The translations under genes were made by a program, and so were the position numbers. The notes beneath the pieces are model-generated. The model made no database searches, was not told the origin of the DNA, and saw nothing but the letters and a program-made list of their open reading frames with translations. A DNA stretch of 64,000 bases from assembly GCA_035577985.1 (NCBI GenBank), contig DATJZY010000025.1, positions 66,229 through 130,228 of the forward strand, in the 5' to 3' direction. Positions 3,166 through 56,799 of the stretch are shown here, piece by piece (position 1 is the stretch's first letter; every line of letters starts with the position of its first letter). Source of the DNA: Candidatus Eiseniibacteriota bacterium. GTDB lineage: Bacteria > Desulfobacterota > Binatia > DP-6.

Positions 3166-5157
3166 TCAACGGGCGCGGCTCGCGGCGTCCTTGAGCAGCT
3201 GGTCGATCGCCGTGGCGCAGTCGGGGCCGATGGAACCCTTGCGACCCGCCTTGCGCGCCGACTTCGCGGCCTTCTTCAGCTTGCCGCGCGACTTCGCGAG
3301 CAGGCGCTTCCGCGCCTTCGCGGCGGCCGCAGCCTGCGCCTTCTCGAGCACGGTCCGCGCGGCGTCGACGCGAGCCCCGATCGCCGCCGGAATGCTGTCG
3401 CTCTTGCACGCCGCCGGCGGGTAGCCGCGCAGCACGCACAGCGCGCCGTCCGCGCCGATCGCCGGGCAGGCGACGGTGAGCGAGGCGGTCGCGGTTGCCG
3501 AGCTCGCACTCCCGTCCGTGGCCGCGAACGTGAACGAGTCGTCGCCGTCGAATCCGGCAGCCGGCGTGTACGCGACGGCTCCCGACGCCTCGTCGATCGA
3601 TTCGAGGGTGCCGTGCATGGGGGCGGCCACGATCGAGCGCGTGATGGGATCCCCGTTGGGGTCGTTGCACGACAACGCGATCATCGTGCGCGTCCCGTTC
3701 GGGACGAGCGAGGATACGTTCGCGCAGATCGGCGCGACCTCCCGGGAGAACGCCGACACCGCACTGCTGCCATCCGCCCGGGTGTAGGCGGTTGCGTTGT
3801 CGGCACTCACGACGAGGGATGACACGGCGATCAGAGCGACCCCGTCGGCGCACTGCCCGCCCGTTCCAGTCTCGCTGACACAGCCGGCGGTACCCGGGAG
3901 TTGCGAGATCTTGCCGTCGGCGGGATCGCGGGAGAATACGGCCACGGCGCTGACTGGATCGATCGAGACGACGTAGACGCTCAGCCCGTCGGGGGAGACC
4001 ACGGCCCAGTTCGCGCGAGCGAGCGCCTTCCCCGTCGCGCATCCCGGCGGCGCCGGCGCTTCGGCGATGCAGCCGGCGGGACCGGCGAGCTGCGTCAGCG
4101 TACCGGCTGCCGGGTCGCGGGCGAAGATCGTGACCGTACCGGAGCCTCCCCCGGAGGCCACGTATGCGTTGGCGCCATCGGGGCTGATCCCGACGTGGGC
4201 TACGAAGGTGAGACCGTTGCCTTCGGAACATGCTCCGCCGCTGCCGCTCGCGCTGACGCAGCCGGCGGTGCCGGGGAGCTGCGTGAGCGCGCCGAGCGGA
4301 GCGTCGCGCGAGAAGATCGCGATCGCGCCGTTGTTGTTCGAGGCGACGTACGCGAACTTGTCGTCGGGGCTGAGCGTGATCTGCCGGGGACCGGCGAGCG
4401 CGACGCCGTCGGCACAGCTCCCCGCCGTGCCGCCGGTGTGGTCGAAGCCATCTTCGCTGACGCAGCCGTCGGTGCCGGAAAGCTGGGTCAGCGCGCCGGT
4501 CGATGCGTCGCGCGAGAACGCGGCGATCGAGTTGCCGAAGGACGAGGCGACGTAGACGTTCGCGCCGTCGGCGCTGACCTGCACCGAACGAACACCGCTG
4601 AGCCCCCTGCCGTCGACGCAGCTTCCCGCTGTGCCTCCGGGGTGATCGAAGCCATCCTCGCTGATGCAGCCGCTGGTCCCGGGAAGCTGTGTCAGCGCGC
4701 CGGTCGACGTGTCGCGCGAGAACGCCGCGACCGAATCGCTGTTCTGGCCAGTGAGGTAGACGTTCCGACCGTCGGCGCTGACCGCCACGCTGGTCGCGCC
4801 CTCCAGGCCTCTGCCGGCCGTGCAGCCAGGCGTCGCCATCGGGTCCTCTGCGACGCAACCGGCGCTACCCGGTAGCTGTGTGAGGACGCCGCTCGCCGGG
4901 TCGCGCGACAGGACGGCCACGCCATGCTGGGATGCGCTGTACACGTTCTTGCCGTCGGGGCTGAGGGCAATCACGCCGTAGCCGTCGGCGGCGAGGGCGT
5001 TGCCGTCGGTGCAGGCGCCGCCCGTGCCATCGTCGGAGATGCAGGCGTCGAGGCCGGAGAGCTGGGTGAGAGCGCCGAGCGGGGGCGGAATCGCCGAGGC
5101 GCGTCCCGCGAGCGCGGTGAGGGCGGCCCAAAGGAGGACGGTGCTTGCGTTCTTCAT
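3166..5157 (-). CDS. Secreted beta-propeller repeat protein (YVTN/lactonase-like repeats) with Lys-rich C-terminal helical tail
   Basis: Start chosen at MKNASTVLLWAALTALAG (signal peptide); at least 7 repeats of VSxDGxNVYVxS...AFSRDxxTGALTQLxGTxGC; C-terminal KARKRLLAKSRGKLKKAAK tail. Confidence 0.7.
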   Translation of the reverse strand: MKNASTVLLWAALTALAGRASAIPPPLGALTQLSGLDACISDDGTGGACTDGNALAADGYGVIALSPDGKNVYSASQHGVAVLSRDPASGVLTQLPGSAGCVAEDPMATPGCTAGRGLEGATSVAVSADGRNVYLTGQNSDSVAAFSRDTSTGALTQLPGTSGCISEDGFDHPGGTAGSCVDGRGLSGVRSVQVSADGANVYVASSFGNSIAAFSRDASTGALTQLSGTDGCVSEDGFDHTGGTAGSCADGVALAGPRQITLSPDDKFAYVASNNNGAIAIFSRDAPLGALTQLPGTAGCVSASGSGGACSEGNGLTFVAHVGISPDGANAYVASGGGSGTVTIFARDPAAGTLTQLAGPAGCIAEAPAPPGCATGKALARANWAVVSPDGLSVYVVSIDPVSAVAVFSRDPADGKISQLPGTAGCVSETGTGGQCADGVALIAVSSLVVSADNATAYTRADGSSAVSAFSREVAPICANVSSLVPNGTRTMIALSCNDPNGDPITRSIVAAPMHGTLESIDEASGAVAYTPAAGFDGDDSFTFAATDGSASSATATASLTVACPAIGADGALCVLRGYPPAACKSDSIPAAIGARVDAARTVLEKAQAAAAAKARKRLLAKSRGKLKKAAKSARKAGRKGSIGPDCATAIDQLLKDAASRAR

Positions 5158-7703: not shown

Positions 7704-9265
<1,562 letters not shown>

Positions 9266-9276
9266 ACCGCGCCCGG

Positions 9277-9296
9277 GGTGCAACGGCGCTTGCACC
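9277..9296. promoter_or_regulatory. Perfect 7-bp inverted repeat GGTGCAA-N6-TTGCACC in the 59-bp divergent intergenic region
   Basis: Read directly: GGTGCAAcggcgcTTGCACC; lies 12 nt upstream of the EBP start and 29 nt upstream of the thiolase start. Confidence 0.4.
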
Positions 9297-9324
9297 GCCG
9301 TGGGGCCTTTCGTAGACCCACCGC

Positions 9325-10500
9325 ATGTCCGCCCATCCGCTGCGTGGCAGCGCCGCGATCGCCGGCCTCGGCATCACGCCACAGGGCAAGGTGTACGGAC
9401 AGGGCGCGGTCGGCTTCGCGGTCGACGCCGTGCGCACGGCGCTCGACGACGCCGGTCTCCAGCGCTCGGATCTGGACGGCCTCCTCCTCAACCCGGGGCT
9501 CACCTGGGGTGACATGGGCATGGGCTCCTTCCAGCTCCAGCAGGCGATGGGGCTCCACAACCTGCGCCTCTCCGCGACGATGAACCTCGGCGGCGCCACC
9601 GCCGCCGCCATGATCCAGCACGCGGCCCAGGCGATCGCGGCGGGCCTGTGCACGACGGTCGTGTGCGTCTTTTCGGATGCGCCGCTGAAGCCGCCGGCGC
9701 CGAAGGGGGAAAAACAGTCGACGGGCGCGGCGTATGCGTTCGCGCGCGGGTGGGAGGCCGCCTACGGCTTCTTCGGCGTGAACGCGATGTACGCGCTCGT
9801 CGCCAAACGGCACATGCACCTCTACGGCACGACCCAGGATCACCTCGGCATGGTCGCCGTCGCGCAGCGCAAGTGGGCGAATCGCAATCCCGCGGCACAG
9901 CTCCACGATCAACCGCTGTCGCTCGAGGACTACCGGCGGTCGCGATGGGTCGTCGAGCCGTTCCACCTCTTCGACTGCTGCCTGGTGTCGAACGGCGGCC
10001 TCGCGGTGATCGTGACGAGCGCCGAGCGGGCGCGCAACGCGAAGAAACCACCCGTCTACGTCTGGGGCATGGGCCAGGGGCACCTCGGCGGCGACGCGGC
10101 CGACACGCTCGCGTCGGGCGCCGTCATCGCGAAGGAACCGGCATTCTCCATGGCGGGCATCACGCTCGCCGACGTCGACGTCGTGGAGCTCTACGACTGC
10201 TACACGTTCACCGTGCTCGTCACGCTCGAGGACTACGGCTTCTGCAAGAAGGGCGAGGGGGGACCATTCGTCGCCGAGCACGTGACCGGCCCCGGCGGCA
10301 AGCTCGCGCTCAACACCGGCGGAGGGCAGCTCTCGAGCTTCTACATGTGGGGCATGACGCCGATCTCCGAGGCGGTGATCCAGCTCCGCGGTGAGGGCGG
10401 CGACCGCCAGGTGCCGAAGCACGACGTGGCGCTCGTGTCCGGCAACGGGGGCGTGCTCTCGACCCACTCGACGCTCGTCCTCTCGAGGCTGCCCGCGTGA
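9325..10500 (+). CDS. Thiolase-like protein (SCP-x/nonspecific lipid-transfer-protein type thiolase)
   Basis: 391 aa; thiolase fold blocks (AIAGLGITPQGK, NLGGATAAAMIQHA, CYTFTVLVTLEDYGFC, SGNGGVLSTHSTLVL); paired with a DUF35 gene as in Ltp2/ChsH-type systems. Confidence 0.75.
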   Translation: MSAHPLRGSAAIAGLGITPQGKVYGQGAVGFAVDAVRTALDDAGLQRSDLDGLLLNPGLTWGDMGMGSFQLQQAMGLHNLRLSATMNLGGATAAAMIQHAAQAIAAGLCTTVVCVFSDAPLKPPAPKGEKQSTGAAYAFARGWEAAYGFFGVNAMYALVAKRHMHLYGTTQDHLGMVAVAQRKWANRNPAAQLHDQPLSLEDYRRSRWVVEPFHLFDCCLVSNGGLAVIVTSAERARNAKKPPVYVWGMGQGHLGGDAADTLASGAVIAKEPAFSMAGITLADVDVVELYDCYTFTVLVTLEDYGFCKKGEGGPFVAEHVTGPGGKLALNTGGGQLSSFYMWGMTPISEAVIQLRGEGGDRQVPKHDVALVSGNGGVLSTHSTLVLSRLPA

Positions 10501-10928
10501 CCACCCCCTCCGCCAGCCCTCCTGCGAAGCCCCTGCCGCAGATCTCGCCCGAGATGGCGCCCTTCTTCGCCGCCGCGCGTCGCCACGAGCTGGTCGTCCA
10601 GCGCTGTGGCACGTGCCACACGATGCGATTTCCGGCACGGGCCGTGTGCAGCCGGTGCCTCGGGCGCGAGAGCGAATGGGTTCCCGTATCGGGGCGTGGC
10701 GAGGTCTTCAGCGTGGCCGTCATGCACCAGGCGAATCACCCGGGCTTCGCCGCGGAGGTCCCGTACGCCGTGGTCGTCGTCGCGCTCGAGGAGGGCGTCC
10801 GCATGCTGTCGAACGTGGTCGACTGCCCCGTCCGGGAGGTCCGGATCGGCCTCCCGGTCGAGGTCACGTTCGACGACGTGACCCCCGAGGTGACCCTGCC
10901 GAAGTTCCGCCCCCGGCGGGGTGCCTGA
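10497..10928 (+). CDS. DUF35 Zn-ribbon/OB-fold protein (thiolase partner)
   Basis: CGTCHTMRFPARAVCSRC zinc ribbon followed by OB-fold region; GTGA overlap with the thiolase stop. Confidence 0.75.
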   Translation: MTTPSASPPAKPLPQISPEMAPFFAAARRHELVVQRCGTCHTMRFPARAVCSRCLGRESEWVPVSGRGEVFSVAVMHQANHPGFAAEVPYAVVVVALEEGVRMLSNVVDCPVREVRIGLPVEVTFDDVTPEVTLPKFRPRRGA

Positions 10929-10992
10929 CCCCCCGGGGACACCCCGCCGAGGGCGCTTCTACGGGACGACGCAGGAGTGCTAGTACCTGCGC

Positions 10993-12510
10993 ATGTCCGA
11001 GGAGTCAGAGCTTCAAGTCAGACGGGAGCGTGACCTCTATCTTCGACTCTTGCGGCTGGGCGACGCACAGGAGCTCGAGCCCTTTCTTCGCGAGGCCCTC
11101 GCGCTCATCGTCGAGGTGACCGGCGCACGCCTCGGCTACCTGCAGGTCGACGACGTCGACCATGATCCCGCGGGCGAGGGGTGGTGGATGCAGCACGGTT
11201 TCTCGGAGGGGGAGCTCGCCCAGGTGCGAGCCAGCATCTCGCAGGGGATCGTGGCGCAGGCGCTCGAGACCGGCGAGACGATCATGACGGCGTCGGCCCT
11301 CCTCGACCCGCGCTTCCGCGAGCGCGGGAGCGTCCGCGCCAGCCGCATCGAGTCGGTGCTGTGCGCGCCGATCGGCCGTGATCCGCGCCTGGGTGTGCTC
11401 TACCTGCAGGGCCGCACCGAGCCCGGGACCTTCACGGAGGAGGATCGATCGAACGCCGAGGTGTTCGCGCGCCACCTGGCGCCGCTGGCGGACCGACTGC
11501 TCACGCAGGAGCGGCGGCGGATCGACACCGACGCCACGCGCGCGGCTCGCCTGCGCCTGCGCGCCGACGGCGTGATCGGGCGCAGCGCCGCGCTCGCCAG
11601 GGTCCTCCAGCAGGTGGCCCTCGTGGCGCCGCTCGAGCTGTCCATCCTGCTCACGGGCGAGACCGGAACCGGCAAGAGCCAGCTCGCGCGCGTGATCCAC
11701 GACAACAGCCTGCGGGCGTCGGGTCCGTTCATCGAGCTCAACTGCGCCGCGCTCCCGGACAACCTGATCGAGAGCGAGCTGTTCGGGGCCATGCCCGGCG
11801 CCCACTCGACGGCGACCAAGCGGATCGAGGGCAAGCTCGCCGCCGCCACGCAGGGGACGCTCCTGCTCGACGAGGTCGGCGACCTCTCGCTGCCGGCGCA
11901 GGCGAAGCTCCTGCAGCTCCTGCAATCGGGGGAATACTTTCCGCTGGGGGCCGCGCGGTCCATCCGCGCCGACGTCCGCATCATCGCCGCGACCAACACG
12001 GATCTCGCCGCCGCGATGGCCGAGCACCGCTTCCGCGAGGATCTCTTCTACCGGCTGCACGTGCTGCCGATCCACGTGCCGAGCCTCGCCGAGCGGCGGG
12101 ACGACATCGGCGCGCTCGCCCAGTACTTCTGCGCCCAGGCGAGCGAGCGGCATCGGCTGCCGCACGTCGGCATCTCGCCGTACGCCCAGCGGGCGCTCGA
12201 GGCCGCGGAGTGGCCCGGCAACGTGCGCCAGCTCGCGCACAGCGTCGAAGCCGCCACCATCCGCGCCGCGGCGACCGGCGCGCGCTGGGTCGAGCGCGGC
12301 CACTTCTTCCCCGAGACGGGATCGAACGGGACCGAGCACAACGGACAGCTGACGTTCCAGGAGGCGACGCGGCGCTTCCACGTGAAGCTGCTCCGCGACA
12401 CGCTGGACGAATCTGGATGGAGCGTGATCGAGGCCGCCCGCCGTCTCGACCTCGCGCGCTCGCACGTCTACAACCTGATCCGCGCCCTCGGCATCGAGCG
12501 CCCGAAGTAG
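10993..12510 (+). CDS. Sigma-54-dependent transcriptional activator with N-terminal GAF domain (second copy)
   Basis: Walker A GETGTGKSQ, ESELFG, C-terminal HTH; 505 aa. Confidence 0.9.
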   Translation: MSEESELQVRRERDLYLRLLRLGDAQELEPFLREALALIVEVTGARLGYLQVDDVDHDPAGEGWWMQHGFSEGELAQVRASISQGIVAQALETGETIMTASALLDPRFRERGSVRASRIESVLCAPIGRDPRLGVLYLQGRTEPGTFTEEDRSNAEVFARHLAPLADRLLTQERRRIDTDATRAARLRLRADGVIGRSAALARVLQQVALVAPLELSILLTGETGTGKSQLARVIHDNSLRASGPFIELNCAALPDNLIESELFGAMPGAHSTATKRIEGKLAAATQGTLLLDEVGDLSLPAQAKLLQLLQSGEYFPLGAARSIRADVRIIAATNTDLAAAMAEHRFREDLFYRLHVLPIHVPSLAERRDDIGALAQYFCAQASERHRLPHVGISPYAQRALEAAEWPGNVRQLAHSVEAATIRAAATGARWVERGHFFPETGSNGTEHNGQLTFQEATRRFHVKLLRDTLDESGWSVIEAARRLDLARSHVYNLIRALGIERPK

Positions 12511-16290: not shown

Positions 16291-16950
16291 ATGGAGAACG
16301 CCGTCAACCCCGTGGACCTCAGCTTCTGGACCTTGATCCAGCAGGGCGCGATCTCGACCTATCCCCTGCTCATCTGCTCGGTCATCGTGGTGGCCGTCGC
16401 GCTCGAACGCGCCTGGGCGCTGCGCGGCGCGCTCGCCGCGGCGCCCGCGCTCGCGGCGCGCATTGCGCCGACGCTCGCCAACGGCGACGCGAAGAACGCG
16501 ATCGCGACGCTGGCGCAGGCCCCCGCCACCGCTGCGCGACGCGTCTTCGCCGACATCCTGGCCGAGCCGGGGCTCGAACGGACCGAGCTCGAGCGGATCG
16601 CCGACGAACGCCAGTTCGAGGAGGCCCAGGAGGCCGGATCCTATCTCTGGATCCTCGGCACGATCGGATCGTCGGCGCCGTTCATCGGCCTGTTCGGTAC
16701 GGTGATGGGCATCATCCGCTCGTTCCACAGCATGGCGATCGCCGGCACCGGCGGCTTCGGCGTCGTCGCGGGCGGCATCTCCGAGGCGCTGATCGCAACC
16801 GCGCTCGGGCTCGCGGTCGGCATCCTCGCGGTCGTCCTCTACAACTACTTCCAGGCGCGCGTGGAACGCATCGACGCGGCCCTGCAGATCGGCAGCGCTC
16901 GGGTCGTGGAAGCGCTCATGGCCGGACGGAGAGCGCATGGCGTTCGGTAA
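16291..16950 (+). CDS. MotA/TolQ/ExbB-family proton-channel protein
   Basis: 219 aa, three TM helices, conserved TolQ/ExbB C-terminal TM2-TM3 block ([24 protein letters not shown]...[17 protein letters not shown]); GAGGAG RBS. Confidence 0.85.
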
Positions 16951-17341
16951 GGCCCATCGCCGCGGCCAGATCGTCGCCGAGATCAACGTCACGCCGCTGA
17001 CGGACGTATTCCTGGTCCTCCTCATCATCTTCATGATCACCACCTCGGCCATGGTGAAGCCCGCGGCCGACGTGAACCTGCCCGAGACCGCCGAGGACAA
17101 CCAGGAGACCCAGGGCGTCATGGTGACCATGACGCCGAGCAAGCAGATCTACGTCGGCGATCGCTCGGTCGAGGGCGACGACGCGGCGGTCGTGAGCGCG
17201 CTCAAGGACGCGCTCGCGCGCGCCAAGCAGAAGGTCGTGATCCTCGCCGGCGACCGGCAGGTCGTGCTCGGCGAGGTCGTTCGCGTGCTCGGGCTTGCCA
17301 AGGAGGCGGGCGCGTCCGGCTTCGCCCTGGCCTCGGAGTGA
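16937..17341 (+). CDS. ExbD/TolR-family biopolymer transport protein
   Basis: 134 aa; [19 protein letters not shown] signature TM; overlaps the ExbB stop. Confidence 0.85.
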
Positions 17342-19479
17342 TCGCCCGCGCCTTCTGCCTGGCGACCCTGATCGTCCTCGGGGTCGCGGCCGCCCTGCGC
17401 GCCGAGAGCCTCGGCGAGCTCGAGCGCCGGGCGAAGGCGTTCTACGACCTGCTCGAGCGCGGGCAGAAGGAGCAGGCCGCCGCGATCTTCCCCGACCTGG
17501 AGAAGGCCCTCGCCTCGACGCTGGACGACCTGCAGGAGCGGCTCGATCGCATGCGCGACGAGGTGATGGAGCGCGACGGCGACATCGAAGCGCTCTACAA
17601 GGAATCGCGCTGGCGCGACCCGGAGATCGCATCGCTGGTCATCACCTATCATCTGGCGTGGGTCCGCTATCAGGGCGCGCAGCTCACGACCGACCAGCGC
17701 CGCAAGAATCAGCTCCTCGACAAGGCGGTCGAGGGCTTCTCGCAGTTCCTGGTCGTGAACGAGGTTCCCGAGGTGTACGCCGAGAGCCAGTACGGGCGCG
17801 GCCTCGCGTTCCTGGACCTCGGCAACTACGCGCAGGCGCGCGACGACCTCGAGGCCGCCGCGAAGGATCCGCGCACTGCCGCCAAGGCGCGATCGGCGCT
17901 CGCCGAGCTGGCGCGACGGCAGGGCGGCAAGGCGAGCAAGGAGCCGGCTCCCGACGATCCCGAGACGCTCCTCGCGCAGCTCGGCGACGCGCTGCCGAAG
18001 GTGGCGAGCAACGCGGCGCTGGAGAAGGACACGACGGCCCTCGCCCGCGGTCTCGCGGCCCGCGGCGGCGACTGGCCGAAGCGCGTCGACGGCACGATCG
18101 CGACCAAGCTCGGCAACGGCACCCCGAGCGGCGTCACGTCGAGCTACGGCCTTCTCCTCCTGGCCCAGCTCGCGATCGATCGTAATCGCTGCGCAGACGT
18201 CGCGCCGCTCGCCGACGCGGGCGGCGCGGTGAAGGACGCGACGCGCGCGCGCTATCGGCCGGAGCTGCTCTACCTCGACGCCGGCTGCCTCATGAACGCG
18301 GGGAAGACGCGCGAGGCCGCCCAGGCGTTCGAGGAGCTGCTGCGCGACTTCCCGGATGCGGCGCGCGCGCGCGACGCCGCCTACTACCGCTTCCGCGCGC
18401 TCGACGTCGCACGTGCGAGCGACGCGTCGCTCGCAGCCGCGTACGAGGACGCACTCACGACCTTTGCGACGCGCTTCCCGAAGGACGACGCGGTCGGCGA
18501 GGCGCGCTACCAGCTGGGCGAGCTCTTGCGCAGTCGCGGCGACTGTCCGAAGGCCGAGGCGGAGTACGCACACGTCACGGCCGGTCCGTTCGCGACGCGC
18601 GCGCGCCTGGGCGCGCTCGAATGCGCGGTGGGCGCGCTCGTAAAGGCCGGCAAGGACGCCCCGCCGGAGCAGCGCCGCGCGCTCCTCGAACGCCTGCGCG
18701 CCTTCGTGCGCGACGTGCCCGCCAAGGGCGCCGACGAACAGGCCGTCGCGCGCGCGGCCCTCATGGGCGGTCTCGTCGCGGCAGACGCGCGCCCACCCGA
18801 CTCCGCGGCGGTGGTCGAGTTCCTCGACAAGTACGAGACCCGGTTCCCGGCCGCGAAGGAATGGCACGCGACGGCGGTCCAACGGCGCCTCGTCGCGCGC
18901 GTGGCGCTCGGGCAGCTCGACGCCGCGGAGCGTGACCTCGACGCGTACCTCGCCGCCGGTCCCGAGGCCGACCGCCGGCGCGTGCTCGACGACCTCGGGC
19001 GCGCGCTCCAGAAGCAGCTCGACGACCCCGACGAGGCGAAGCGACGCGCGGCGCTCGCGCTCGCACGCAAGGTCTACGGCGCTCTGGTGGCGAGCGGCGG
19101 TGAGACCGCCGACCGCGTGGCGCTCGCCGACCTCGAGCTGCGCGGCGGCAACGCCGCCGACGCGCGGCGGAGCTACGACGAGGTGCTGGCGAAGGATCCG
19201 ACCTCGGCCGAGGCGATGCGCGGCGCCGCGCGGGCGGCGGCGGCGCTCGGCGATCGTGCGGGCGCGCTCGCGCGCTGGAAGCAGGTGGTCGAGACGAGCC
19301 CGACCGGCGGCACCGGCTGGTACGAAGCGCGCATCGCCCAGGTGAAGCTCTTCCTCGACGCCGGCCAGAAGGGCGAAGCGTGCGAGGTCGCGCGCCTGTC
19401 CATCGGCAAGTCGACCACCACGGGCGGCGATCAGCTCGACAAGCAGCTCCGGCAGATCGCGACCGCGTCGTGTCGCTGA
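17338..19479 (+). CDS. Periplasmic tetratricopeptide-repeat (TPR) protein, 713 aa
   Basis: Signal peptide ([22 protein letters not shown]); repeated A/L/Y/R-rich helical TPR-like units; GTG start overlapping the ExbD stop (GTGA). Confidence 0.7.
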   Translation: MIARAFCLATLIVLGVAAALRAESLGELERRAKAFYDLLERGQKEQAAAIFPDLEKALASTLDDLQERLDRMRDEVMERDGDIEALYKESRWRDPEIASLVITYHLAWVRYQGAQLTTDQRRKNQLLDKAVEGFSQFLVVNEVPEVYAESQYGRGLAFLDLGNYAQARDDLEAAAKDPRTAAKARSALAELARRQGGKASKEPAPDDPETLLAQLGDALPKVASNAALEKDTTALARGLAARGGDWPKRVDGTIATKLGNGTPSGVTSSYGLLLLAQLAIDRNRCADVAPLADAGGAVKDATRARYRPELLYLDAGCLMNAGKTREAAQAFEELLRDFPDAARARDAAYYRFRALDVARASDASLAAAYEDALTTFATRFPKDDAVGEARYQLGELLRSRGDCPKAEAEYAHVTAGPFATRARLGALECAVGALVKAGKDAPPEQRRALLERLRAFVRDVPAKGADEQAVARAALMGGLVAADARPPDSAAVVEFLDKYETRFPAAKEWHATAVQRRLVARVALGQLDAAERDLDAYLAAGPEADRRRVLDDLGRALQKQLDDPDEAKRRAALALARKVYGALVASGGETADRVALADLELRGGNAADARRSYDEVLAKDPTSAEAMRGAARAAAALGDRAGALARWKQVVETSPTGGTGWYEARIAQVKLFLDAGQKGEACEVARLSIGKSTTTGGDQLDKQLRQIATASCR

Positions 19480-23188: not shown

Positions 23189-23743
23189 ATGTCGACGTAT
23201 GGGCCCGTGGCCGCGCTGGCCCTCTCGACCTCCGCGGCCGTCATCCTTGCCACCGGTTGCGACCTTCGAAGCGATCGCATGCGACCGTCCGTCGGCCCCC
23301 CCGCCACGGGCCTCGGCGCGCACGTCGTTCGCACCGTCGAGGTCTCGTCGGCCCTCTCGATGCCGTCGCTGCGCGTGGTCACGCCGGAGATGCTGCGCGA
23401 CGTGCTGCAACGCGCCCTCACCGACGCCGGCGCGTACGGCGCCGGCGGCCGCTACGTGCTGCACACGAAGATCGTGAGGCTCGAGGGCGGCGGATCGGGC
23501 ATCGGCTTCAACCGCTACGCGCTCGTCGCGATCGACAATCGGCTCGTGGACGATCGCGATCCCGCTTGGAACTGGCACGACGAGGCGTCGGCGAGTCCGG
23601 GCATGCTCCCCATTCCCGGGCAGACGTTCGCCGGGATGGATGCGCAGCGCGAGGCGTTCGAGGCGGCGGTGAGCAACGTAGCCGGCCAGACCGCACGCGC
23701 CGTGCGTGACACGCTCGAGCGTCGATCCAAGGAGAGCCCATGA
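23189..23743 (+). CDS. Hypothetical lipoprotein
   Basis: Signal peptide with lipobox ILATGC; ATGA overlap with the following giant gene. Confidence 0.55.
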   Translation: MSTYGPVAALALSTSAAVILATGCDLRSDRMRPSVGPPATGLGAHVVRTVEVSSALSMPSLRVVTPEMLRDVLQRALTDAGAYGAGGRYVLHTKIVRLEGGGSGIGFNRYALVAIDNRLVDDRDPAWNWHDEASASPGMLPIPGQTFAGMDAQREAFEAAVSNVAGQTARAVRDTLERRSKESP

Positions 23744-26700
23744 CGAAACCCCTGTCGATCGCCGCGCTCTGGGTTGCCCTTCTCCTGCCGAGGCCGATCG
23801 TCGCCGCCACCATCACGGTCGCCACGACCGACGACACGAACGCGGTCGCCTGCACGCTGCGCGACGCGATCACGGCCGCCAACACCGACGCCGTGAGCGG
23901 CGCGTGCCCGGCCGGGGCCGGTGACGACACGATCGACCTCAGCGGTCTCGGCGGAACGATCCTGCTCGGAGCCGCGCTCCCCGGGATCACGACGAACATG
24001 ACCCTGCGTGGTCCGGGAGCGCACGTCCTCACCATCAGCGGACAGGACAGCGTGCAGGTCTTCGTCGTGACGGGCCCGACCGTCACGATCTCCGACGTGA
24101 CGATCGCGCACGGCCTCGCTGCCGGCTCTGGTCGGGGCGGCGGTGTCGAGACCCTCGCGGGCTCGGTCGCCCTCACGCTGTCGCGCGTCGTGATCACACT
24201 CTCTCAGGGCTTCAACGGCGGTGGGATCGCGAACGACGGGGGCGGAACCATGACGATCGTCGACAGCGCGATCGTCGGCAACACCACGACCGGCAACGCC
24301 GGCGCGGGCATCTTGAGCGCCCATTCTTCGACGCTCGTCCTCACCAACACGACCGTGGCCGGGAACACCAACACGGGATTGGACCGCGCGGGCGCGGGAC
24401 TCCTGCTCTCTCGTGGCACGGCGACGATCACCAACTGCACCTTCGCCAACAACGTTGGCACGAGCACGGGCGGGTGGGAGATCATGAACCTGGTCCCGAT
24501 GGAGGACCCCGTCGGTACCCTGCATTTGAAGAACACGATCGTCGCCAACCAGTCCGGCCACGGCTGCCTCGGGCCGATCACGTCGGGCGGCCACAACCTC
24601 TCCGACGACACGACCTGCGCGCTCGCGGGCCCCGGCGATCTCCAGGGCGTCGCCGCGGGCCTCAGCGCACTCGGCGACCACGGCGGTCCGACGCCGACTC
24701 TGGCGCTCGTCGCCGGGAGCCCGGCGATCGACGCCGGAGATGCGGCCGCGTGTCCCCCCGCCGACCAGCGCGGGGTCGGCCGGCCGGTCGACGGCGACGC
24801 CAACGGAAGGGCCGGCTGCGACATCGGCGCCTACGAGGTCGGCTGCGGCGACGGGATCCCTCCGAACAGCCGGTGCGCGCCCGACGCGAATCCATGTACC
24901 GACGACGTGTGCGACGCCCTCGGCGCGTGCCAGCATCCGACTGCCGCGACCGGAGCGCCCTGCGACGATGGGGACCACTGCACGCTCGGCGACACCTGCG
25001 CGAGCGGCGTCTGCTCGGCCGGCACGACCCCGGGGTGCCCGGCAGTGGGAAGCCTCACCTACCGCACCTGCATCACCGGCGAGCTCGAGACGGGCCCGGC
25101 GGGAACGAACGCGTGCACGCAGATCGCCGGCGCCACCTCGGTCGCCCAGCACTCGGGTCTCGACAACCTGCGATCGGTGACCGAGAGCGCGGACGGGATC
25201 TCGCTGTACGTCACGTCCGGCAACGACGACGCCGTCGCACGCTTCGACCGGGATCCCACGACCGGAGCGCTCGCGTACCAGGGGTGCATCTCGGGCGCGA
25301 TCGAGACCGGCCCCACGGGCACGAGCGCCTGCGCGCAGATCCCGAGCGCCACCACGGCCGGACAGAGCTCCGGGCTCGATTTGCCGCAGGCGATCGCGCT
25401 CAGCCCGGACGGGAAGTCGCTCTACACCGCGTCCCTCACGGACGACGCGGTCGCCCGTTTCGACCGGGACACCGCGACGGGTGCCCTCACCTACCGCGAC
25501 TGCCTCACCGGGAAGTCCGAGGCGAACGACACCGCCTGTACCAAGATCCCGAGCGCGAGCTCGTCGGGCATCGATTCGGGTCTCGACTCCCTGTCGGCTC
25601 TGGTGGTGAGCACGGACGGAAAGTCGCTCTACACGGTCTCGCGCGACGACGACGCCGTCGCGCGCTTCGATCGCGACACGGCGACCGGCGCCCTCACCTA
25701 CCAGGGCTGCATCACCGGCGAGACCGAGAGCGGGCCCGCCGGCACGGGCGCGTGTGTGCAGATCGGGAGCGCCGCCTCGGGGGGCGCGAACTCCGGGCTC
25801 GATGACCTCTTCTCGCTGGCAGTCAGCGCGGACGGGAAGTCCCTGTACGCCGTCTCCCTATTGGACGATGGGGTCGCTCGCTTCGCCCGCGATCCGGGGG
25901 CGGGCGCCCTCGTCTACCAGGGCTGCATCAGCGGCGAGATCGAGAGCGGCCCCACCGGCACCGGCGCCTGCGCCCAGATCGGCGCCGCGGCGTCGTCGGG
26001 CGTCAACTCCGGGCTCGATGCGCTCTACGCGATCGTCGTCAGCCCCGACGACAAGTCGGTCTACACGGTCTCGCAGGAGGACGACGCCGTCGACCGCTTC
26101 GACCGCGATCCGGGAAACGGCGCGCTCACCTACCAGGGCTGCATCACCGGCGAGACCGAGAGCGGTCCGGCAATCCCGATCCCAGGCACCGGTGCGTGCG
26201 TCGAGATCGCGAGCGCCACCTCGCGCGGAACGAACTCGGGACTCGACAAGCTGCGCTCGATGGCGGCGAGCCCGGACGGGACGTCGCTCTACGTCGCCTC
26301 GCCGCAGGACGACACGATCGCGCACTTCGTGCGTGACCCCATGAGCGGTGCGCTCACCTACGAGAGCTGCATCACGGCGGAGGCAGAGACCGGCCCTACG
26401 GGGACGAACGCCTGTGCCCAGATCCCGAGCGCAACCTCGTTCGGCACGAACTCCGGCGTCGACAATCCGCAGGCATTCCTCGTGAGCCCCGTCGGGCTCC
26501 AGCTCTACACGAGCTCCGGGAACGACGCGGCCGTGGCGCGCTTCGACCGCGAGCCCGAGCCGCCGCCCACGACGACGACCACGACGCTGCCCGGGCAGGC
26601 GATCCGCGGCAAGCTCCTCCTCATCGTCGACGGCACCGACGCCAAGAAGCGCAAGATCGTCTTCAAGGCGAAGGATGCGAGCATCGACACCAGCGCGGGC

Positions 26701-27108
26701 AGCGGCATCGATCCGGTCACGGACGGGGCCGTGTTCCAGGTCTTCAACGATGCGGGCACGGGGGACTCGGCCTGCTTCGATCTTCCCGCGGCCGGATGGA
26801 CGAGGAAGGGCAAGCCGGCCAAGCCGACGTTCCGCTATCGGGACAAGAAGTTCGCGATGGGTCCCTGCAGCCTCACGACCGTCCAGGACGCCAAGTCGCT
26901 CGTGGTCGTGTGTCAGGCGAAGGTGCGGCCGATCGACTACTCGCTCGACCAGCCCGCACAGCAGCGGGTGGGCGTGCGCTTTCGCAGCGGCGGTACCGAG
27001 TACTGCACGGTCTTCGGGGGCAAGGTCCTGAAGGACAAGCAGAAGACAAAGTTCCGGGCGAAGAACGCGCCGGCGGCGTGTCCGGCGGCGCCCGTCGCCT
27101 GTCCCTGA
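23740..27108 (+). CDS. Giant secreted multidomain protein: right-handed beta-helix (ending CDIGAYE) + Myxococcus-type Cys-rich repeat + about 10 beta-propeller repeats + Thr-rich linker + C-terminal domain
   Basis: Signal peptide MTKPLSIAALWVALLLPRPIVA; GGGIANDGGGTMTIVDSAIVGNTTTGNAGAGI beta-helix repeats; PDANPCTDDVCDALGAC; repeats SPDGKSLYxxSxxDDAVARFDRDxxTGALTYQGCITGExESGPxGTGAC. Confidence 0.75.
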   Translation: MTKPLSIAALWVALLLPRPIVAATITVATTDDTNAVACTLRDAITAANTDAVSGACPAGAGDDTIDLSGLGGTILLGAALPGITTNMTLRGPGAHVLTISGQDSVQVFVVTGPTVTISDVTIAHGLAAGSGRGGGVETLAGSVALTLSRVVITLSQGFNGGGIANDGGGTMTIVDSAIVGNTTTGNAGAGILSAHSSTLVLTNTTVAGNTNTGLDRAGAGLLLSRGTATITNCTFANNVGTSTGGWEIMNLVPMEDPVGTLHLKNTIVANQSGHGCLGPITSGGHNLSDDTTCALAGPGDLQGVAAGLSALGDHGGPTPTLALVAGSPAIDAGDAAACPPADQRGVGRPVDGDANGRAGCDIGAYEVGCGDGIPPNSRCAPDANPCTDDVCDALGACQHPTAATGAPCDDGDHCTLGDTCASGVCSAGTTPGCPAVGSLTYRTCITGELETGPAGTNACTQIAGATSVAQHSGLDNLRSVTESADGISLYVTSGNDDAVARFDRDPTTGALAYQGCISGAIETGPTGTSACAQIPSATTAGQSSGLDLPQAIALSPDGKSLYTASLTDDAVARFDRDTATGALTYRDCLTGKSEANDTACTKIPSASSSGIDSGLDSLSALVVSTDGKSLYTVSRDDDAVARFDRDTATGALTYQGCITGETESGPAGTGACVQIGSAASGGANSGLDDLFSLAVSADGKSLYAVSLLDDGVARFARDPGAGALVYQGCISGEIESGPTGTGACAQIGAAASSGVNSGLDALYAIVVSPDDKSVYTVSQEDDAVDRFDRDPGNGALTYQGCITGETESGPAIPIPGTGACVEIASATSRGTNSGLDKLRSMAASPDGTSLYVASPQDDTIAHFVRDPMSGALTYESCITAEAETGPTGTNACAQIPSATSFGTNSGVDNPQAFLVSPVGLQLYTSSGNDAAVARFDREPEPPPTTTTTTLPGQAIRGKLLLIVDGTDAKKRKIVFKAKDASIDTSAGSGIDPVTDGAVFQVFNDAGTGDSACFDLPAAGWTRKGKPAKPTFRYRDKKFAMGPCSLTTVQDAKSLVVVCQAKVRPIDYSLDQPAQQRVGVRFRSGGTEYCTVFGGKVLKDKQKTKFRAKNAPAACPAAPVACP

Positions 27109-36582: not shown

Positions 36583-38265
36583 ATGTACGAGACGTTCTTC
36601 GGTCTCGGCGACGCGCCGTTCCGGCTGACGCCCGACCCGCGCTACCTCTTCCTGTCGAAGAAGCACGAGGACGCCCTCGCGCACCTTCGCCTCGGCCTCA
36701 CCGAGAGCGGCTTCGTCTGCATCACCGGCGACGTCGGCACCGGGAAGACGACGCTCCTGCGTCACTTCCTCGCGAACCTCGGGCCCGACGTCTCGACCGC
36801 GTACGTCTTCAATCCGTCCCTGTCGGCGCTCGAGCTGCTGCAGACGATCAACGCCGAGTTCGGCCTGCCCGCGTCGAACACGAGCAAGAAGGCCCTCACC
36901 GACCTGCTGAACGCGCATCTGCTCAAGCTGCGCCAGGAAGCCCGGCGCGCCGTCGTCATCATCGACGAGGCCCAGGCCCTCGACATCGACGTGCTGGAGC
37001 AGCTCCGGCTGCTCTCGAATCTCGAGACGCCGACCGAGAAGCTCCTGCGCATCATCCTGGTCGGGCAGCCACAGCTCCGCGGCCTGCTGCAGCATCCCGA
37101 GCTGGTGCAGTTGAACCAGCGCATCACGCTGCGCTGGCACATCGGCCCCCTCTCGGCGGCGGAGACCAGCGCCTACGTGCGCCATCGCCTCTCGGTGGCG
37201 AGCCACGCCAAGGCGCGCGATCTCTTCACCCGCCGCGCGCTGGCACTCGTCCATCGCTACTCGGGCGGCGTGCCGCGTCTCACCAACATGCTCGCGCATC
37301 GCGCACTGCTCGCCGCGTTCGCCGCCGAGCGCCAGCGCGTCACGGCGCGCGACGTGCGCAAGGCGTACCGCGAGGTGTCGACGGTGCCGCTGCCGGGGGC
37401 GCGGCGTCGCTCGTGGCTCGTCCCGGCGATCGTGACCGCGACCGCCGCCGGAGCGCTCATCGCCATCGGCGCCCGCCGGCTCGCGCCGCCGCCCGAGTCG
37501 CCGGCCCCGACCGTGACCGCGCCGAGCACGGGTCCGCTGCTCGCGAACATCACCGCAGACACGCCCCAGCCTGGCGAGAACCTGGCGGCGATGACGACGA
37601 CGTCGACCACGGTGCCGGCGCCCTCGCCCGAGCAGCGGCTCACGGCCATGGACGGCGCCGCGACCCTCCACGGCGCGCTCGGCGCCATCGCGCGCGCCTG
37701 GCAGAAGCCCGGACCGGCCGACGACGACCGGCAGGAAGCCGACCTCGCGCGCTTCGCCGAACGGCGCGGCCTCGAGGACCTGGCGATCACCGGCAACCTC
37801 GCCATGCTGCGCCTCATCGACGTGCCCGCCGTGCTCGAGCTTCGCTTCCCCGGCGCTCCGGACCCGCGCTGGGCGGCGCTGGTCGCGCTCGAGCCCGACC
37901 GTGCCACGCTCGCCGTGGACGGCGAGCCGGTGGTCGTCGAGCCTGCCTTCCTCGAGCGCTACTGGTACGGCCGCGCCCACGTGTTCTCGCCCGACTTCGA
38001 AGGGCTGGGGCCGGGTGCGATCGCGGTCGACGCGCGCGGCGCCCGCGTCATCCGGCTCCAGGCCCTGCTCGGGCGTACCGGCCTCTACGACGGCGGCGAG
38101 ACGGGTTTGTTCGGCCCGACGACGCGCACGGCGGTCACGGCCTTCCAGCGCTCGCGGTACATCGAGCCCGACGGACAGGTCGGGAAGCTGACGCGCATGG
38201 TGCTCTACGCCGCCGTCGGCGGCTACCACCGCCCGACGCTCGTCGGCGGCGGGAGCACTTCGTGA
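36583..38265 (+). CDS. gspA: ExeA/GspA-like AAA ATPase with C-terminal peptidoglycan-binding domain
   Basis: N-terminus FFGLGDAPFRLTPDPRYLFLSKKHEDALAHL, Walker A GDVGTGKTTL, Walker B VVIIDEAQ; C-terminal PG_binding_1-like repeat (LQALLGRTGLYDGGETGLFGPTTRTAVTAFQ). Confidence 0.75.
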   Translation: MYETFFGLGDAPFRLTPDPRYLFLSKKHEDALAHLRLGLTESGFVCITGDVGTGKTTLLRHFLANLGPDVSTAYVFNPSLSALELLQTINAEFGLPASNTSKKALTDLLNAHLLKLRQEARRAVVIIDEAQALDIDVLEQLRLLSNLETPTEKLLRIILVGQPQLRGLLQHPELVQLNQRITLRWHIGPLSAAETSAYVRHRLSVASHAKARDLFTRRALALVHRYSGGVPRLTNMLAHRALLAAFAAERQRVTARDVRKAYREVSTVPLPGARRRSWLVPAIVTATAAGALIAIGARRLAPPPESPAPTVTAPSTGPLLANITADTPQPGENLAAMTTTSTTVPAPSPEQRLTAMDGAATLHGALGAIARAWQKPGPADDDRQEADLARFAERRGLEDLAITGNLAMLRLIDVPAVLELRFPGAPDPRWAALVALEPDRATLAVDGEPVVVEPAFLERYWYGRAHVFSPDFEGLGPGAIAVDARGARVIRLQALLGRTGLYDGGETGLFGPTTRTAVTAFQRSRYIEPDGQVGKLTRMVLYAAVGGYHRPTLVGGGSTS

Positions 38266-44700: not shown

Positions 44701-45648
44701 ATGCGTCCGCAGGTTCTGGTGGTGAGCCACGGCCCTCATTGCCTCGACGGCGTCACCGCCGCGGCCGCGGTCGCGCGCTACTTCGACGACGCGGCCGAGG
44801 TCACCGCCACCTTCGCGTCGAACAGCGAGATCGATCGCGTGCTCCAGGGGTTGCGTCCGGCGGCGAGCCGCGACACCGAGCTCTGGATCACCGACATCTC
44901 GTGGCGCGAGGCGGCGACGGACGCCCACTTGCGGAGTCTCGTCGCCGACGGCGTCCGCATCTACTGGATCGATCATCACCGCACCGCGCTCGAGCGCGTC
45001 CGCGCGGGCAAGGTCGACGTTCCCTTCGCGGGTACGGTGCTGTCCGAGGACTTCGCGGCGTCGCGCCTCGTCTTCGACTACCTGCAGGCGCGTGCCGCAC
45101 GGGAGGGACGACCGCATGTGCGCCTCGCGTCCTTCCGCCCCACCGTCGCGATGGCCGACGACAACGACCGCTGGTTGCACGAGATTCCCGGATCGCGCGA
45201 GCTCGGATGGGTCGTGCGCGCGCTCGGCCCCGACGCCTATCCGGATTTTCTCACGCTCGATGAGCGAGTTACGTACACGCCGCGCATGGCGGCGGCGCGC
45301 GACCGCGTCGGTGCGGAGATCGCCCGCAGCTTCGAGGTCGCCGAGCGCAGCCGTGTCGAGCGCCGCGTCGGCGACACGACGCTCGTCACTGCAATATGCA
45401 ACGGCCACCCGAGCGAGATCGCCGACGCGTGGGGGAAGAAGCTTTCGCGAGCCGTGTTCGCGCTCTACGACGCGCAGAGCCTCGCGGTGAGTCTTCGCCG
45501 CTCGCCCGACTGCACGGTCGACCTCTCCAAGGTGGCCCAGGCGCTCGGCGGCGGCGGGCACGCGGCCGCCGCAGGCTGCGAGCTCCCCGATCTGCGAACC
45601 GGTTTCGCCGCGCTCGTCGCAGAGGTCGTCTCGAAGGCGCTCAAGTAG
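44701..45648 (+). CDS. DHH/DHHA1-family phosphoesterase (NrnA-like)
   Basis: VVSHGPHCLDGVTAAA (DHH N-terminal motif), IDHH, C-terminal GGGH (DHHA1). Confidence 0.7.
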   Translation: MRPQVLVVSHGPHCLDGVTAAAAVARYFDDAAEVTATFASNSEIDRVLQGLRPAASRDTELWITDISWREAATDAHLRSLVADGVRIYWIDHHRTALERVRAGKVDVPFAGTVLSEDFAASRLVFDYLQARAAREGRPHVRLASFRPTVAMADDNDRWLHEIPGSRELGWVVRALGPDAYPDFLTLDERVTYTPRMAAARDRVGAEIARSFEVAERSRVERRVGDTTLVTAICNGHPSEIADAWGKKLSRAVFALYDAQSLAVSLRRSPDCTVDLSKVAQALGGGGHAAAAGCELPDLRTGFAALVAEVVSKALK

Positions 45649-46123
45649 CGATTCGAACGGCGAAATTCCGCCCTGGGGATCGGGGCAGGAGTCGAGGTGG
45701 AAGCCCGAGAGCGATGCCCCGCAGACCGACTCCCCGCGCGAGGAGCCCCACCCCAAAACTCACCATCTCTCGGGCCTCCACCGCCACGCCTCGCGTTTCC
45801 ACATCCTGTGGAGACGCACCCCAACCCAGCCTCCGCACTCGTCTGCACCGGCCCGGCGTGACCATGAGCTCGCACGCGTACCGCGAACGCTACGACGTTG
45901 GTCGCAGGAACTCGTGCGCGAACGACGACTCGACGGGAACGACGGAGAGGAGCAAACCGTGTGCGGTGAAGCGAGCCGGCTCTTAACGCAAACTCGTCAG
46001 TGCTGTCAAGTAGAAAAGATATCCCACGCGCCAAAAACGCGCGTTTCCGTTGCGGAAAAATTTTTTCGTGACGCGACGAGCACGTGGACTTGTAATCGAC
46101 GTGACTCGATGTAACAAGCGAAC

Positions 46124-48431: not shown

Positions 48432-48506
48432 CCACCACCTCCGGACCCGGACTCGACCCGTACCCCCAGACACTTAGCGCATTATTGCCTGCGGTGCGAC
48501 GAAGGC

Positions 48507-49094: not shown

Positions 49095-49098
49095 GGCC

Positions 49099-50166: not shown

Positions 50167-50246
50167 CTTCAGCAATCCACCATCCGGCATTGTGCCGGGA
50201 ATCCCCGCGGGTTGCGAGGCAGCCACGCCGCTTCTATGGTCGACGC

Positions 50247-54921: not shown

Positions 54922-56799
54922 TCAGCCGAGGGCGGCGAGCAACTGCTTCAGATCGTCGTAGATGGATCGTGTTTCGCCCAGCAGCGGCATCCGCGTTGCG
55001 TCGGGAATGATCTTCCGGGCGGATCGCGATTTCAAGCGGTGCTGGAGGGTGCTCAGGCGCCTGACCGCCTTCTTCACGACGTTTTTCTGCTTCTTCGCCC
55101 CACCGAGGCCTTCGGCTGCCTGCAGCTTCTCGCGCACCTTCGCCGCGATCATGACGAGACCGTTCTGCAGTCGCCCCAGGTCGCTCGCGGCCTGCAGCCG
55201 CGTCACGAGGGCGTCGAGCCGGCATTCGATCGACTCGAAGGTCGCAACGGCTCGGCAGCCCGGGAGCGTCGTGGTGCTCGTCGTGGTCGACGTCGACGTC
55301 TCGCAGGTCTCCAGTGGATCGGGGGCCCGCTCGTAGGATCCGATGTCGCACCGCTTCCCCACGGGTCGCGTGACTCCACGCTGGTCGACGATCTCGCACG
55401 CGTCGCCACCGCTGCCGACCGGTCCGGGGCTTCCCGCTTCGATCGCCGGGCTGCACGACAGAAGGACGTGCAGCGCCGTCGGACCTCCTTCCACGACGGC
55501 GAGCTCGTCGAGCATCGGATCGACACCCGTGACGTCGCCCGGGCCTGCGAGCCGACTGCAGTCGGCCGAGTTCTCGATGAGCGAGTAGCCGTCCGATACC
55601 AGCGTCTGCGGGTTCCCGACCGATTCCGTGAAGCAGTCGGGTCCGGCGGTGGGGAGCGGCGGGTCTGCGGTCGTGGTGTTGTCCGCAATGATCGTGTTCC
55701 GAACGTGGAAGGTCCCTGAATCGAGGGCGACTCCTCCGCCACGTGCTGCGGGTACGGTCCCGACGAGCGGCAGCGGCGGCGATCTGTCGACGGCATTGCG
55801 TGCGATGGTGACGTTGCTGAGGCTCCACGACCCTCCGCCCTGCGCCGAGATCCCGCCGCCCTCGGCGCGTCCCAACCAGTCGACGAATACGGCGTTCGAG
55901 CTGATCGTGCTGTTGACGATCGTGAAGGTGGCGCCGCCCGCCTCGCCAATGCCGCCTCCGAGGCCGTCGCCGTTCGGGACGGAGATCGTGTTGCCGACGA
56001 TGGTCGAACGCTCGATCGTCCAGGTGGCCATTCCCCGATCCGAGATGCCGGCACCCTCGGCGTTTGCGTCGATCGAACCGGCTGTGTTCCCACCGATCGT
56101 CGACTCGACGATGGTGACGTTCGCGGGAGCGCTCGCCGAAATGCCCCCTCCATAGACCGACCCCGTCGACACCGTCACGGAGTTGACCACGAGCCGACTG
56201 CGCGTGATCGTGACCGTCGCGGCGGCGGACAGCTGGATCGCGCCACCCTCGGCCGCTTGGTTGTTGCTGAAGCTGGAGTCCGTGATCGCTACGCTCGGGC
56301 TCGCTCCCGCTACGAAGAGTCCGCCGCCGAGACACCCGTCGCCGCAGCGGTTGGCGTTGACCTGGCTGCTCACGAGCGCGAGCTTTCCGCCATCGACCCG
56401 GATGCCGCCGCCATGATCGCCAGGCTCCGTCAGGCGACCGCCCATCAGCACGACGTGCTCGAACGTCAGATCGCCCGACGGTGCGACCTCGACGATGCGA
56501 AACGAAGCCACTGCGCCCGGCGCCCGCGCGATGCTGGAATCCGGCCCGCCGCTCACCGATGCCGATCCGACGATCGTGATCTTGCTGGTGACGACCGGCA
56601 GCCCATTTACCCCGTTGTCCGCTGCGGGAAGCGAGTAGACCTCTCCGGGTGCGAGGTTGATCGTGTCGTCCTCCGCGCTCGCGTTGGCCGCAGCGATGGC
56701 GGCGACCAGCGCCGGGACGTCGCCCGCCGGAACGTCGACGACCGCAGCTACGGCGGCGCGCGAGACGATCACGGCGATGAGGGCGACGATCGAGCGCAC
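54922..56799 (-). CDS. Secreted right-handed beta-helix protein ending in CDIGSYE motif, Thr-rich linker and Lys-rich C-terminal helical tail
   Basis: Signal peptide MRSIVALIAVIVSRAAVA; repeated GG..NT/NS..I/V beta-helix rungs; CDIGSYE; TSTSTTTSTTTLPG; KKQKNVVKKAVRRL tail. Confidence 0.75.
   Translation of the reverse strand: MRSIVALIAVIVSRAAVAAVVDVPAGDVPALVAAIAAANASAEDDTINLAPGEVYSLPAADNGVNGLPVVTSKITIVGSASVSGGPDSSIARAPGAVASFRIVEVAPSGDLTFEHVVLMGGRLTEPGDHGGGIRVDGGKLALVSSQVNANRCGDGCLGGGLFVAGASPSVAITDSSFSNNQAAEGGAIQLSAAATVTITRSRLVVNSVTVSTGSVYGGGISASAPANVTIVESTIGGNTAGSIDANAEGAGISDRGMATWTIERSTIVGNTISVPNGDGLGGGIGEAGGATFTIVNSTISSNAVFVDWLGRAEGGGISAQGGGSWSLSNVTIARNAVDRSPPLPLVGTVPAARGGGVALDSGTFHVRNTIIADNTTTADPPLPTAGPDCFTESVGNPQTLVSDGYSLIENSADCSRLAGPGDVTGVDPMLDELAVVEGGPTALHVLLSCSPAIEAGSPGPVGSGGDACEIVDQRGVTRPVGKRCDIGSYERAPDPLETCETSTSTTTSTTTLPGCRAVATFESIECRLDALVTRLQAASDLGRLQNGLVMIAAKVREKLQAAEGLGGAKKQKNVVKKAVRRLSTLQHRLKSRSARKIIPDATRMPLLGETRSIYDDLKQLLAALG

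Follow-up and report, generated by a model that had tools for sequence, protein, structure and literature searches.

Two secreted proteins with cationic C-terminal tails

We describe the C-terminal tails of two secreted proteins, here called proteins A and B, encoded in a 64,000-nucleotide stretch of DNA (the window; G+C content 71%) from a Candidatus Eiseniibacteriota bacterium of the Binatia (GenBank assembly GCA_035577985.1, contig DATJZY010000025.1, positions 66,229 to 130,228). An earlier note, made from the letters of this DNA, had proposed that a single lysine-rich helical tail is carried by both proteins on otherwise different ectodomains. Our reading, to which we attach a probability of roughly 0.5, is that the window encodes two distinct cationic C-terminal modules, and that the tail of protein B (tail B) would act as an extracytoplasmic tether to an anionic polymer. 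The features discussed here are collected in Table 1.

Protein A begins with a Sec-type signal peptide (MKNASTVLLWAALTALAGRASA). Pfam recognises in it a beta-propeller of the lactonase type (Lactonase, 7.7e-22) and, at residues 475-561, an Ig-like domain (Big_9, 5.6e-13), and the protein ends in ...KARKRLLAKSRGKLKKAAKSARKAGRKGSIGPDCATAIDQLLKDAASRAR; a database protein (P0153) is identical to its 663-residue product. Protein B has a signal-like N-terminus, a beta-helix with Chlam_PMP-like repeats and a choice-of-anchor Q domain at residues 427-491 (NCBIfam NF041518, 60.1 bits against a cutoff of 25), and ends in ...KKQKNVVKKAVRRLSTLQHRLKSRSARKIIPDATRMPLLGETRSIYDDLKQLLAALG. The tail residues quoted in the earlier note are present at both C-termini, and both tails have a coding-type G+C content at third codon positions (GC3), namely 0.94 for tail A and 0.85 for tail B. 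The net charge is +15 for tail A (over the 101-residue stretch measured), which consists of 28% Ala and 22% Lys + Arg, and +12 for tail B (over 114 residues).

Table 1. Coordinates of the features discussed in the text; positions refer to the window unless a locus is named.
Feature	Position	Strand	Description
Protein A gene	3166..5157	minus	Open reading frame (ORF) of 663 residues; signal peptide, propeller, Ig-like domain, type-A tail
Type-A tail	3169..3474	minus	102 residues; four Cys (CPAIGADGALC...PPAAC...GPDCATAI) and a Lys/Arg/Ala-rich helical region
Protein B gene	54922..56799	minus	ORF of 625 residues; beta-helix, choice-of-anchor Q, linker, type-B tail
Thr/Ser-rich linker	55264..55302	minus	ETSTSTTTSTTTL; directly N-terminal of tail B; read from sequence
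Type-B tail	54925..55263	minus	Last 113 residues of protein B; cationic four-helix bundle as predicted by AlphaFold2 (AF2)
Probable relative of tail A	L010:13557-13871	minus	C-terminus of gene L010:13554..15737(-)
Third secreted protein	23740..27108	plus	1122 residues; beta-helix, Cys-rich region, lactonase-type propeller blades, poly-Thr linker
ExbB/ExbD/TPR gene set	16291..19479	plus	Envelope-related, far from both tail genes
ExeA/GspA-like protein	36583..38265	plus	ATPase (AAA_22 + PG_binding_1); envelope-related, far from both tail genes

A large family of type-B domains

The C-terminal domain family to which tail B belongs is large and uncatalogued, and tail B is typical of it. The domain is about 115 residues long, and the family resembles the curated family FIMAH and is distinct from it. 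A word-index protein search with tail B returned two relatives (P0001 and P0002), and a three-sequence type-B profile run against 1.84 billion representative proteins matched 792 clusters at E<=0.001, 366 of them at E<=1e-10 and 13 at E<=1e-30. We examined 152 members, that is, the 150 best profile matches together with P0001 and P0002; against a hidden Markov model (HMM) of these 152 sequences, tail B scores 117 bits (E=1.6e-35). NCBIfam holds no model for the family. A near-identical orthologue of protein B (P0003), with at least three residue differences within the tail, lies in the syntenic contig L004 (ENA ERZ27256607, contig k141_1162603), which comes from a closely related genome and matches the gene order of the window from about 45000 to 64000.

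The architecture of the 152 members is that of a terminal module. The domain occurs as a single copy; the distance from its end to the C-terminus is 0-56 residues, in most cases no more than 15. Of the 114 members with 40 or more residues upstream of the domain, 75 have a linker with more than 50% Thr/Ser/Pro directly before it. Among the 79 longer members, 24 Pfam ectodomain families are represented: Beta_helix is the commonest (12 members), Chlam_PMP occurs in seven, one member carries a Lactonase propeller, and others have PKD, Laminin_G_3, FG-GAP_2, LDL-receptor repeat class B, Vgb_lyase or DUF5122 domains. Several members have no cargo at all: in P0002, P0030, P0040, P0064, and P0085, for instance, the signal peptide is followed by nothing but a Thr-rich linker and the tail, which favours an autonomous function over that of a cargo tag. 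The earlier suggestion of a modular tail on differing ectodomains holds for each tail taken separately, with B found on hundreds of proteins and A probably on at least one other; the possibility that no other protein carries the tail, which the same note had allowed for, is overturned for tail B by the 792 clusters, while for tail A one probable relative was found.

Conservation within the family is concentrated in the cysteines, the hydrophobic core positions and a set of basic residues. An N-terminal Cys pair, C-x(10-12)-C-R-L, with one Cys ahead of helix 1 and the other within it, is near-invariant. Many members have a second pair, one Cys lying in the helix 2-3 loop and the other in an extension at the C-terminus ('..L.CP.DA'); this pair is missing from the subgroup of tail B. 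Lys, Arg or His occupies each of nine alignment columns in 80-96% of members (motifs CRL, K..LKKA.R, HRL, ARK.IP, and ..R..), forming a conserved basic stripe over helices 3 and 4 and the loop that joins them. The mean net charge is +9.5 (standard deviation 3.7) and is positive in 99% of members, which fits the idea of polyanion binding. In tail B, the N-terminal pair reads C-x10-C-R-L-D-A-L and the basic motif LKKA.R....HRL.S...RK.IP; both family consensus motifs, TF.SI.CRL.AL for the Cys pair and LKKA.R...F.HRLRS..ARK.IP for the basic region, are present in it, as C...TFESIECRLDAL and VKKAVRRLSTLQHRLKSRSARKIIP.

A separate observation concerns the far C-terminal motif C[PL]PASPSGAF[LV], which trails some B tails and also ends small Cys/Lys-rich secreted proteins of Binatia metagenome-assembled genomes (MAGs). 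It was seen in P0002, P0005, P0023, and P0053, the last with the variant CPPDDGSPSGAFL, and at L007:14854-15189 (+) and L008:14889-15206 (+). This motif could be a separate terminal signal.

Predicted fold of the type-B domain

From a 52-sequence alignment, AF2 predicts tail B as an up-down four-helix bundle with a mean predicted local distance difference test (pLDDT) of 96.7 and a predicted template modelling score (pTM) of 0.88; the helices span residues 9-25, 30-52, 56-85 (briefly interrupted at residue 79), and 88-111. A Foldseek comparison of this model with the PDB returned generic four-helix bundles alone, none at E<0.001: template modelling (TM) scores were 0.58-0.80 at E values of at least 0.12 and identities of 5-18%, with S23-IVS/Avd-like proteins (2rld, 2gsc, 4dwl) at 0.78-0.80 and the pectin methylesterase inhibitor (PMEI) 1x8z at 0.72-0.74, and the copper storage protein Csp also among the matches. 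A sequence search of the PDB with the B profile gave a best E value of 0.022, to an unrelated protein.

FIMAH (PF22888), an 81-position helical model, is the only curated family with any signal for the B tails. It matches 23 of 52 at E<=0.1 (best 6.4e-6) and one of the 52 at E<=1e-4, relative to a gathering cutoff of 24.8 bits. In the one match with reported coordinates, P0016 (E=7.4e-4), the last two helices (LKKA...HRLRS...IP...DL..L) align with profile positions 29-80. Tail B of the window itself has no FIMAH match at E<=0.1, and tail A has none either, at E limits from 0.1 to 10. Compared with FIMAH, the B family adds two N-terminal helices, the conserved Cys pair, a strong positive charge and the C-terminal position. 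A literature search on FIMAH (PF22888) or on C-terminal domains of secreted Binatia proteins yielded nothing relevant.

The type-A tail and its probable relative

Pfam and NCBIfam scans found no family match for tail A, and AF2, run on the single sequence, gave a short beta-hairpin followed by three helices at low confidence (pLDDT 65). The 120 best homologues of protein A all lack an A-like tail and end in other domains. A word-index protein search with tail A returned nothing at E<=1, although its parent protein A is in the database; this silence carries little weight because the same search, queried with tail B, missed the near-identical 625-residue protein P0003, and its negatives are thus unreliable for short, compositionally biased queries. 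Two scans of metagenome contigs, with tail A alone and with the pair of type-A sequences described next, recovered no relatives of tail A.

Type-A tails were also sought in the six-frame ORFs of 17 fetched loci, including Binatia-type loci that carry tail B, and a probable relative was found in one of them only, the Binatia-like MAG locus L010. Read from the first start codon, the ORF measures 727 residues, but a stretch resembling a signal peptide suggests that the true start lies later; the encoded ectodomain is unlike that of protein A, and the tail is preceded by Thr-rich linkers. The two tails are 29% identical (phmmer E=0.014; BLASTP E=0.001), and their Smith-Waterman score of 88 was reached by none of 2000 global shuffles and none of 2000 shuffles within blocks. 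Three Cys and the motifs IP..I, RLL, KA.R, and CA.AI are collinear in the two sequences; the pattern used to define such tails also includes C..C.L and PP.C. On this comparison, the L010 tail is a probable relative, and tail A would be a module with at least one further occurrence, on another ectodomain. The same locus holds a B-tail gene (9164-10354, +) about 3 kb from the type-A-tail gene.

Tail A could instead be a low-complexity, histone-H1-like disordered tail rich in Ala and Lys, its likeness to tail B and to L010 being compositional. Its composition, the lack of relatives in the word-index search, the two metagenome scans and the 120 homologues, and its low AF2 confidence would all suit that explanation, but the word-index negative is weak, the L010 comparison outscores every one of the global and block shuffles, three Cys and the IP, RLL, KA.R, and CA.AI motifs are collinear with it, and AF2 places helices all through the region. 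We consider this explanation quite unlikely.

Relationship between tails A and B

Direct comparison of the two tails gives a small signal. BLASTP aligns them at 16.5 bits (E=0.059 in a single comparison) in an alignment that stops short of the final QLL motif. Their Smith-Waterman score of 56 was reached by one of 2000 global shuffles (mean 31.1, standard deviation 5.6) and by 13 of 2000 shuffles within 12-residue blocks, which preserve regional composition (mean 37.1, standard deviation 5.9). With hhalign, tail A aligned to the B alignment scores 21.8 (P=0.0018, probability 15%), a score reached by none of 150 global and four of 150 block shuffles. When a two-sequence type-A HMM was applied to the B tails, the mean scores were 3.4 bits for forward, 1.6 for reversed and 0.5 for shuffled sequences; the difference between forward and reversed tails has a Wilcoxon p of 8.5e-10, which is inflated because the B tails are mutually related and so not independent. 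The earlier note had named composition alone as the explanation that would undo its alignment; the small excess over the shuffles speaks against that, but is insufficient for calling a module. Judged from the sequences, tails A and B appear slightly more alike than composition gives, and too little so for one conserved module.

Profile methods separate the two tails. Under the HMM of the 152 B members, protein A obtains 3.4 bits (E=3.2) and ranks 14th among six-frame noise, a phmmer comparison of tail A with protein B yields 5.0 bits (E=3.2), and a profile-profile hhalign comparison of the type-A pair with the B family falls to a probability of 12% over 17 columns. The cysteine register also shifts with the method: Cys23 of tail A pairs with the second Cys of the B N-terminal pair in the Smith-Waterman alignment and with the first in hhalign, an inconsistency expected from the generic similarity of amphipathic helices rich in Ala, Lys, and Arg. 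Because the B HMM gives tail A 3.4 bits, hhalign probabilities stay at 12-15% and tail A has a probable relative of its own on a different ectodomain, we read the tails as members of two families, and the earlier claim of one conserved tail common to both proteins was not borne out; by these methods, they are probably two different C-terminal domains.

It is nevertheless conceivable that the two tails diverged within one superfamily, with tail A compacted and its middle helices shortened. Besides the shuffle statistics, the hhalign P value and the advantage of forward over reversed B tails, most sub-threshold matches of the type-A HMM are B tails, several of them aligned roughly from the tail start; both tails are C-terminal, Cys-containing, cationic, and helical, and a Thr-rich linker precedes the L010 type-A tail as well. 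The noise-level profile scores, the few columns left after realignment, the wandering Cys registers and the predicted helix counts (three for tail A against four for tail B) count against common descent, as does the tendency of Ala/Lys/Arg-rich amphipathic helices to inflate similarity in any case. We regard a single superfamily as possible but somewhat doubtful.

Genomic context and distribution

The protein A gene is flanked by a cupin/glyoxalase pair and a gamma-glutamylcyclotransferase-like gene, and the protein B gene by genes for a fatty-acid hydroxylase and a major facilitator superfamily (MFS) transporter, an arrangement repeated in L004. The earlier note had recommended looking for an associated sortase, exosortase or secretion system. 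No sortase, exosortase, rhombosortase or secretion-system gene was present among about 20 window proteins scanned (a non-exhaustive set), and no sortase, exosortase or secretion-system gene recurred as a neighbour in seven annotated B-tail loci. Tandem B-tail genes occur in two of the loci. L012 (838-5951, -, and 7554-10142, +) holds a B-tail array of three paralogues of about 530 residues, a fourth gene and a fragment, adjoined by an integrase or transposase gene; L016 holds two adjacent B-tail genes at 8315-9988 and 10001-11860 (+).

In genome contigs, the three-sequence B profile found no loci and a 10-sequence alignment gave six, all in MAGs labelled Candidatus Binatia or 'uncultured delta proteobacterium'. 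A further B-tail relative (P0274), from a Candidatus Eisenbacteria MAG, is named a choice-of-anchor Q protein by NCBI, and homologues of protein A also carry Binatia names.

The third secreted protein of the window (Table 1) has a C-terminal module that is beta-rich by eye and ends in ...YCTVFGGKVLKDKQKTKFRAKNAPAACPAAPVACP. Neither the type-A nor the type-B HMM matches this protein, and this genome therefore has at least three C-terminal modules behind similar ectodomains. The earlier reading of one shared tail is corrected to two C-terminal modules and a third, unrelated one, in the window.

Proposed role of the tails

We propose that, after Sec export of protein B, the B bundle would fold and its cysteines form disulfides outside the cytoplasm; an extracytoplasmic location is indicated by the near-invariant N-terminal Cys pair and by the second pair of many members. 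The folded bundle would be an autonomous, non-covalent binding module, not a cleaved sorting signal, and would tether the ectodomain, held out on its flexible linker, to an anionic envelope or matrix polymer, with lipopolysaccharide (LPS), acidic exopolysaccharide, anionic lipid, and extracellular DNA as candidates. The choice-of-anchor Q domain of protein B fits an anchor at the position of tail B, this domain class being, as we take it from NCBIfam naming, called after the varied C-terminal anchors that follow it. Tail A is probably a shorter, four-Cys module of a much rarer family, with three predicted helices, and may likewise be an autonomous extracytoplasmic binding domain.

Several points weigh against this proposal. 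The anchoring role is argued from charge, position and architecture; the structural matches of the tail B model are to generic bundles, and no gene recurs beside the B-tail genes in the seven annotated loci, save the tandem B-tail genes of L012 and L016. The type-A family stands on one relative, at a BLASTP E value of 0.001, the AF2 model of tail A is of low confidence, and the small residual A-B signal sits uneasily with two separate modules.

Two other roles were weighed. The tails might serve not as binding modules but as domains by which a pathway of secretion or sorting recognises its own cargo, in the manner of the C-terminal domain of the type IX secretion system (T9SS) or of PEP-CTERM/exosortase. 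Their location after linkers, at the C-terminal end of many unrelated secreted cargos or close to it, and the place of tail B in the slot behind a choice-of-anchor Q domain are what such tags would show. The Pfam and NCBIfam scans, however, found no sorting-signal model at E<=1 in either whole protein, PEP-CTERM, T9SS and LPXTG included, in line with the earlier note's view that the tail is not obviously a known sorting signal. Both tails lack a hydrophobic stretch of the transmembrane kind, and the model of tail B is that of a soluble helical bundle; cargo-less forms occur, no recurrent sortase, exosortase or secretion gene lies beside the tail genes, and a conserved, disulfide-containing fold of 115 residues exceeds the need of known signals of this kind. 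Sorting tags of this sort are, in our judgement, highly doubtful. PEP-CTERM, T9SS and LPXTG signals were rejected as candidates for want of a model match and of a transmembrane segment, and on the helical fold; for the T9SS C-terminal domain, a beta-sandwich of about 80-100 residues, there was no match at E<=1, and the all-helical tail B model has a pLDDT of 96.7.

The B bundle might also be an oligomerisation module or an intramolecular inhibitor like PMEI. Plant pectin methylesterase inhibitors bind beta-helix enzymes, and the beta-helix is the commonest partner ectodomain of the B tail (12 of 79); the Foldseek TM scores of 0.72-0.74 to PMEI, and the matches to other self-associating four-helix bundles, point the same way. 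Yet all of these Foldseek matches have E values above 0.1 at 8-17% identity, the B tail is found on a range of other folds as well (propellers, PKD and lectin-like ones among them), and this role accounts for neither the long Thr-rich linker nor the conserved basic surface, so that we hold this role to be very unlikely indeed. The occurrence of the tail on many folds, and also alone, led us to reject a PMEI-like intramolecular inhibitor.

Significance and comparison with known systems

Large secreted proteins built on beta-helices and propellers are numerous in the Binatia and in uncultured lineages related to them. The boundaries and the predicted fold are now defined for an uncatalogued type-B domain present in at least 792 clusters, which would improve the annotation of such MAGs and offers a concrete handle on how these proteins stay at the cell surface or in the matrix. 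The family is useful for annotation and unsurprising in kind.

Known four-helix bundles share the topology of tail B without a significant match. S23-IVS/Avd-like proteins and Csp are bacterial, stand-alone, and cytosolic, and PMEI is a secreted plant protein; none of them is appended, as tail B is, to the C-terminus of a protein that a bacterium secretes. Avd, a strongly basic bundle that binds nucleic acid, is a functional analogy for polyanion binding. The PEP-CTERM/exosortase, T9SS C-terminal domain, LPXTG, and GlyGly-CTERM systems occupy the same architectural slot as the tails, at the far C-terminus after a linker and on varied ectodomains. In contrast to signals of the PEP-CTERM and T9SS type, the tails have neither a transmembrane helix with a basic cluster nor a beta-sandwich, and no processing-enzyme gene was seen near their genes.

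The SLH, GW, and LysM domains are autonomous terminal domains that bind a cell-envelope polymer and are common to many surface proteins; their anchoring logic is that proposed for the tails, and their folds and sequences are unrelated. A bolder and, as we see it, unlikely extension is that the B bundle, perhaps together with the type-A tail, may be the shared non-covalent surface anchor of Binatia-type bacteria, attaching dozens of ectodomains per genome to one anionic envelope polymer. The SLH and GW examples come from monoderm bacteria, and if the extension were true, it would represent a diderm counterpart of SLH/GW anchoring and a sorting principle new for the phylum.

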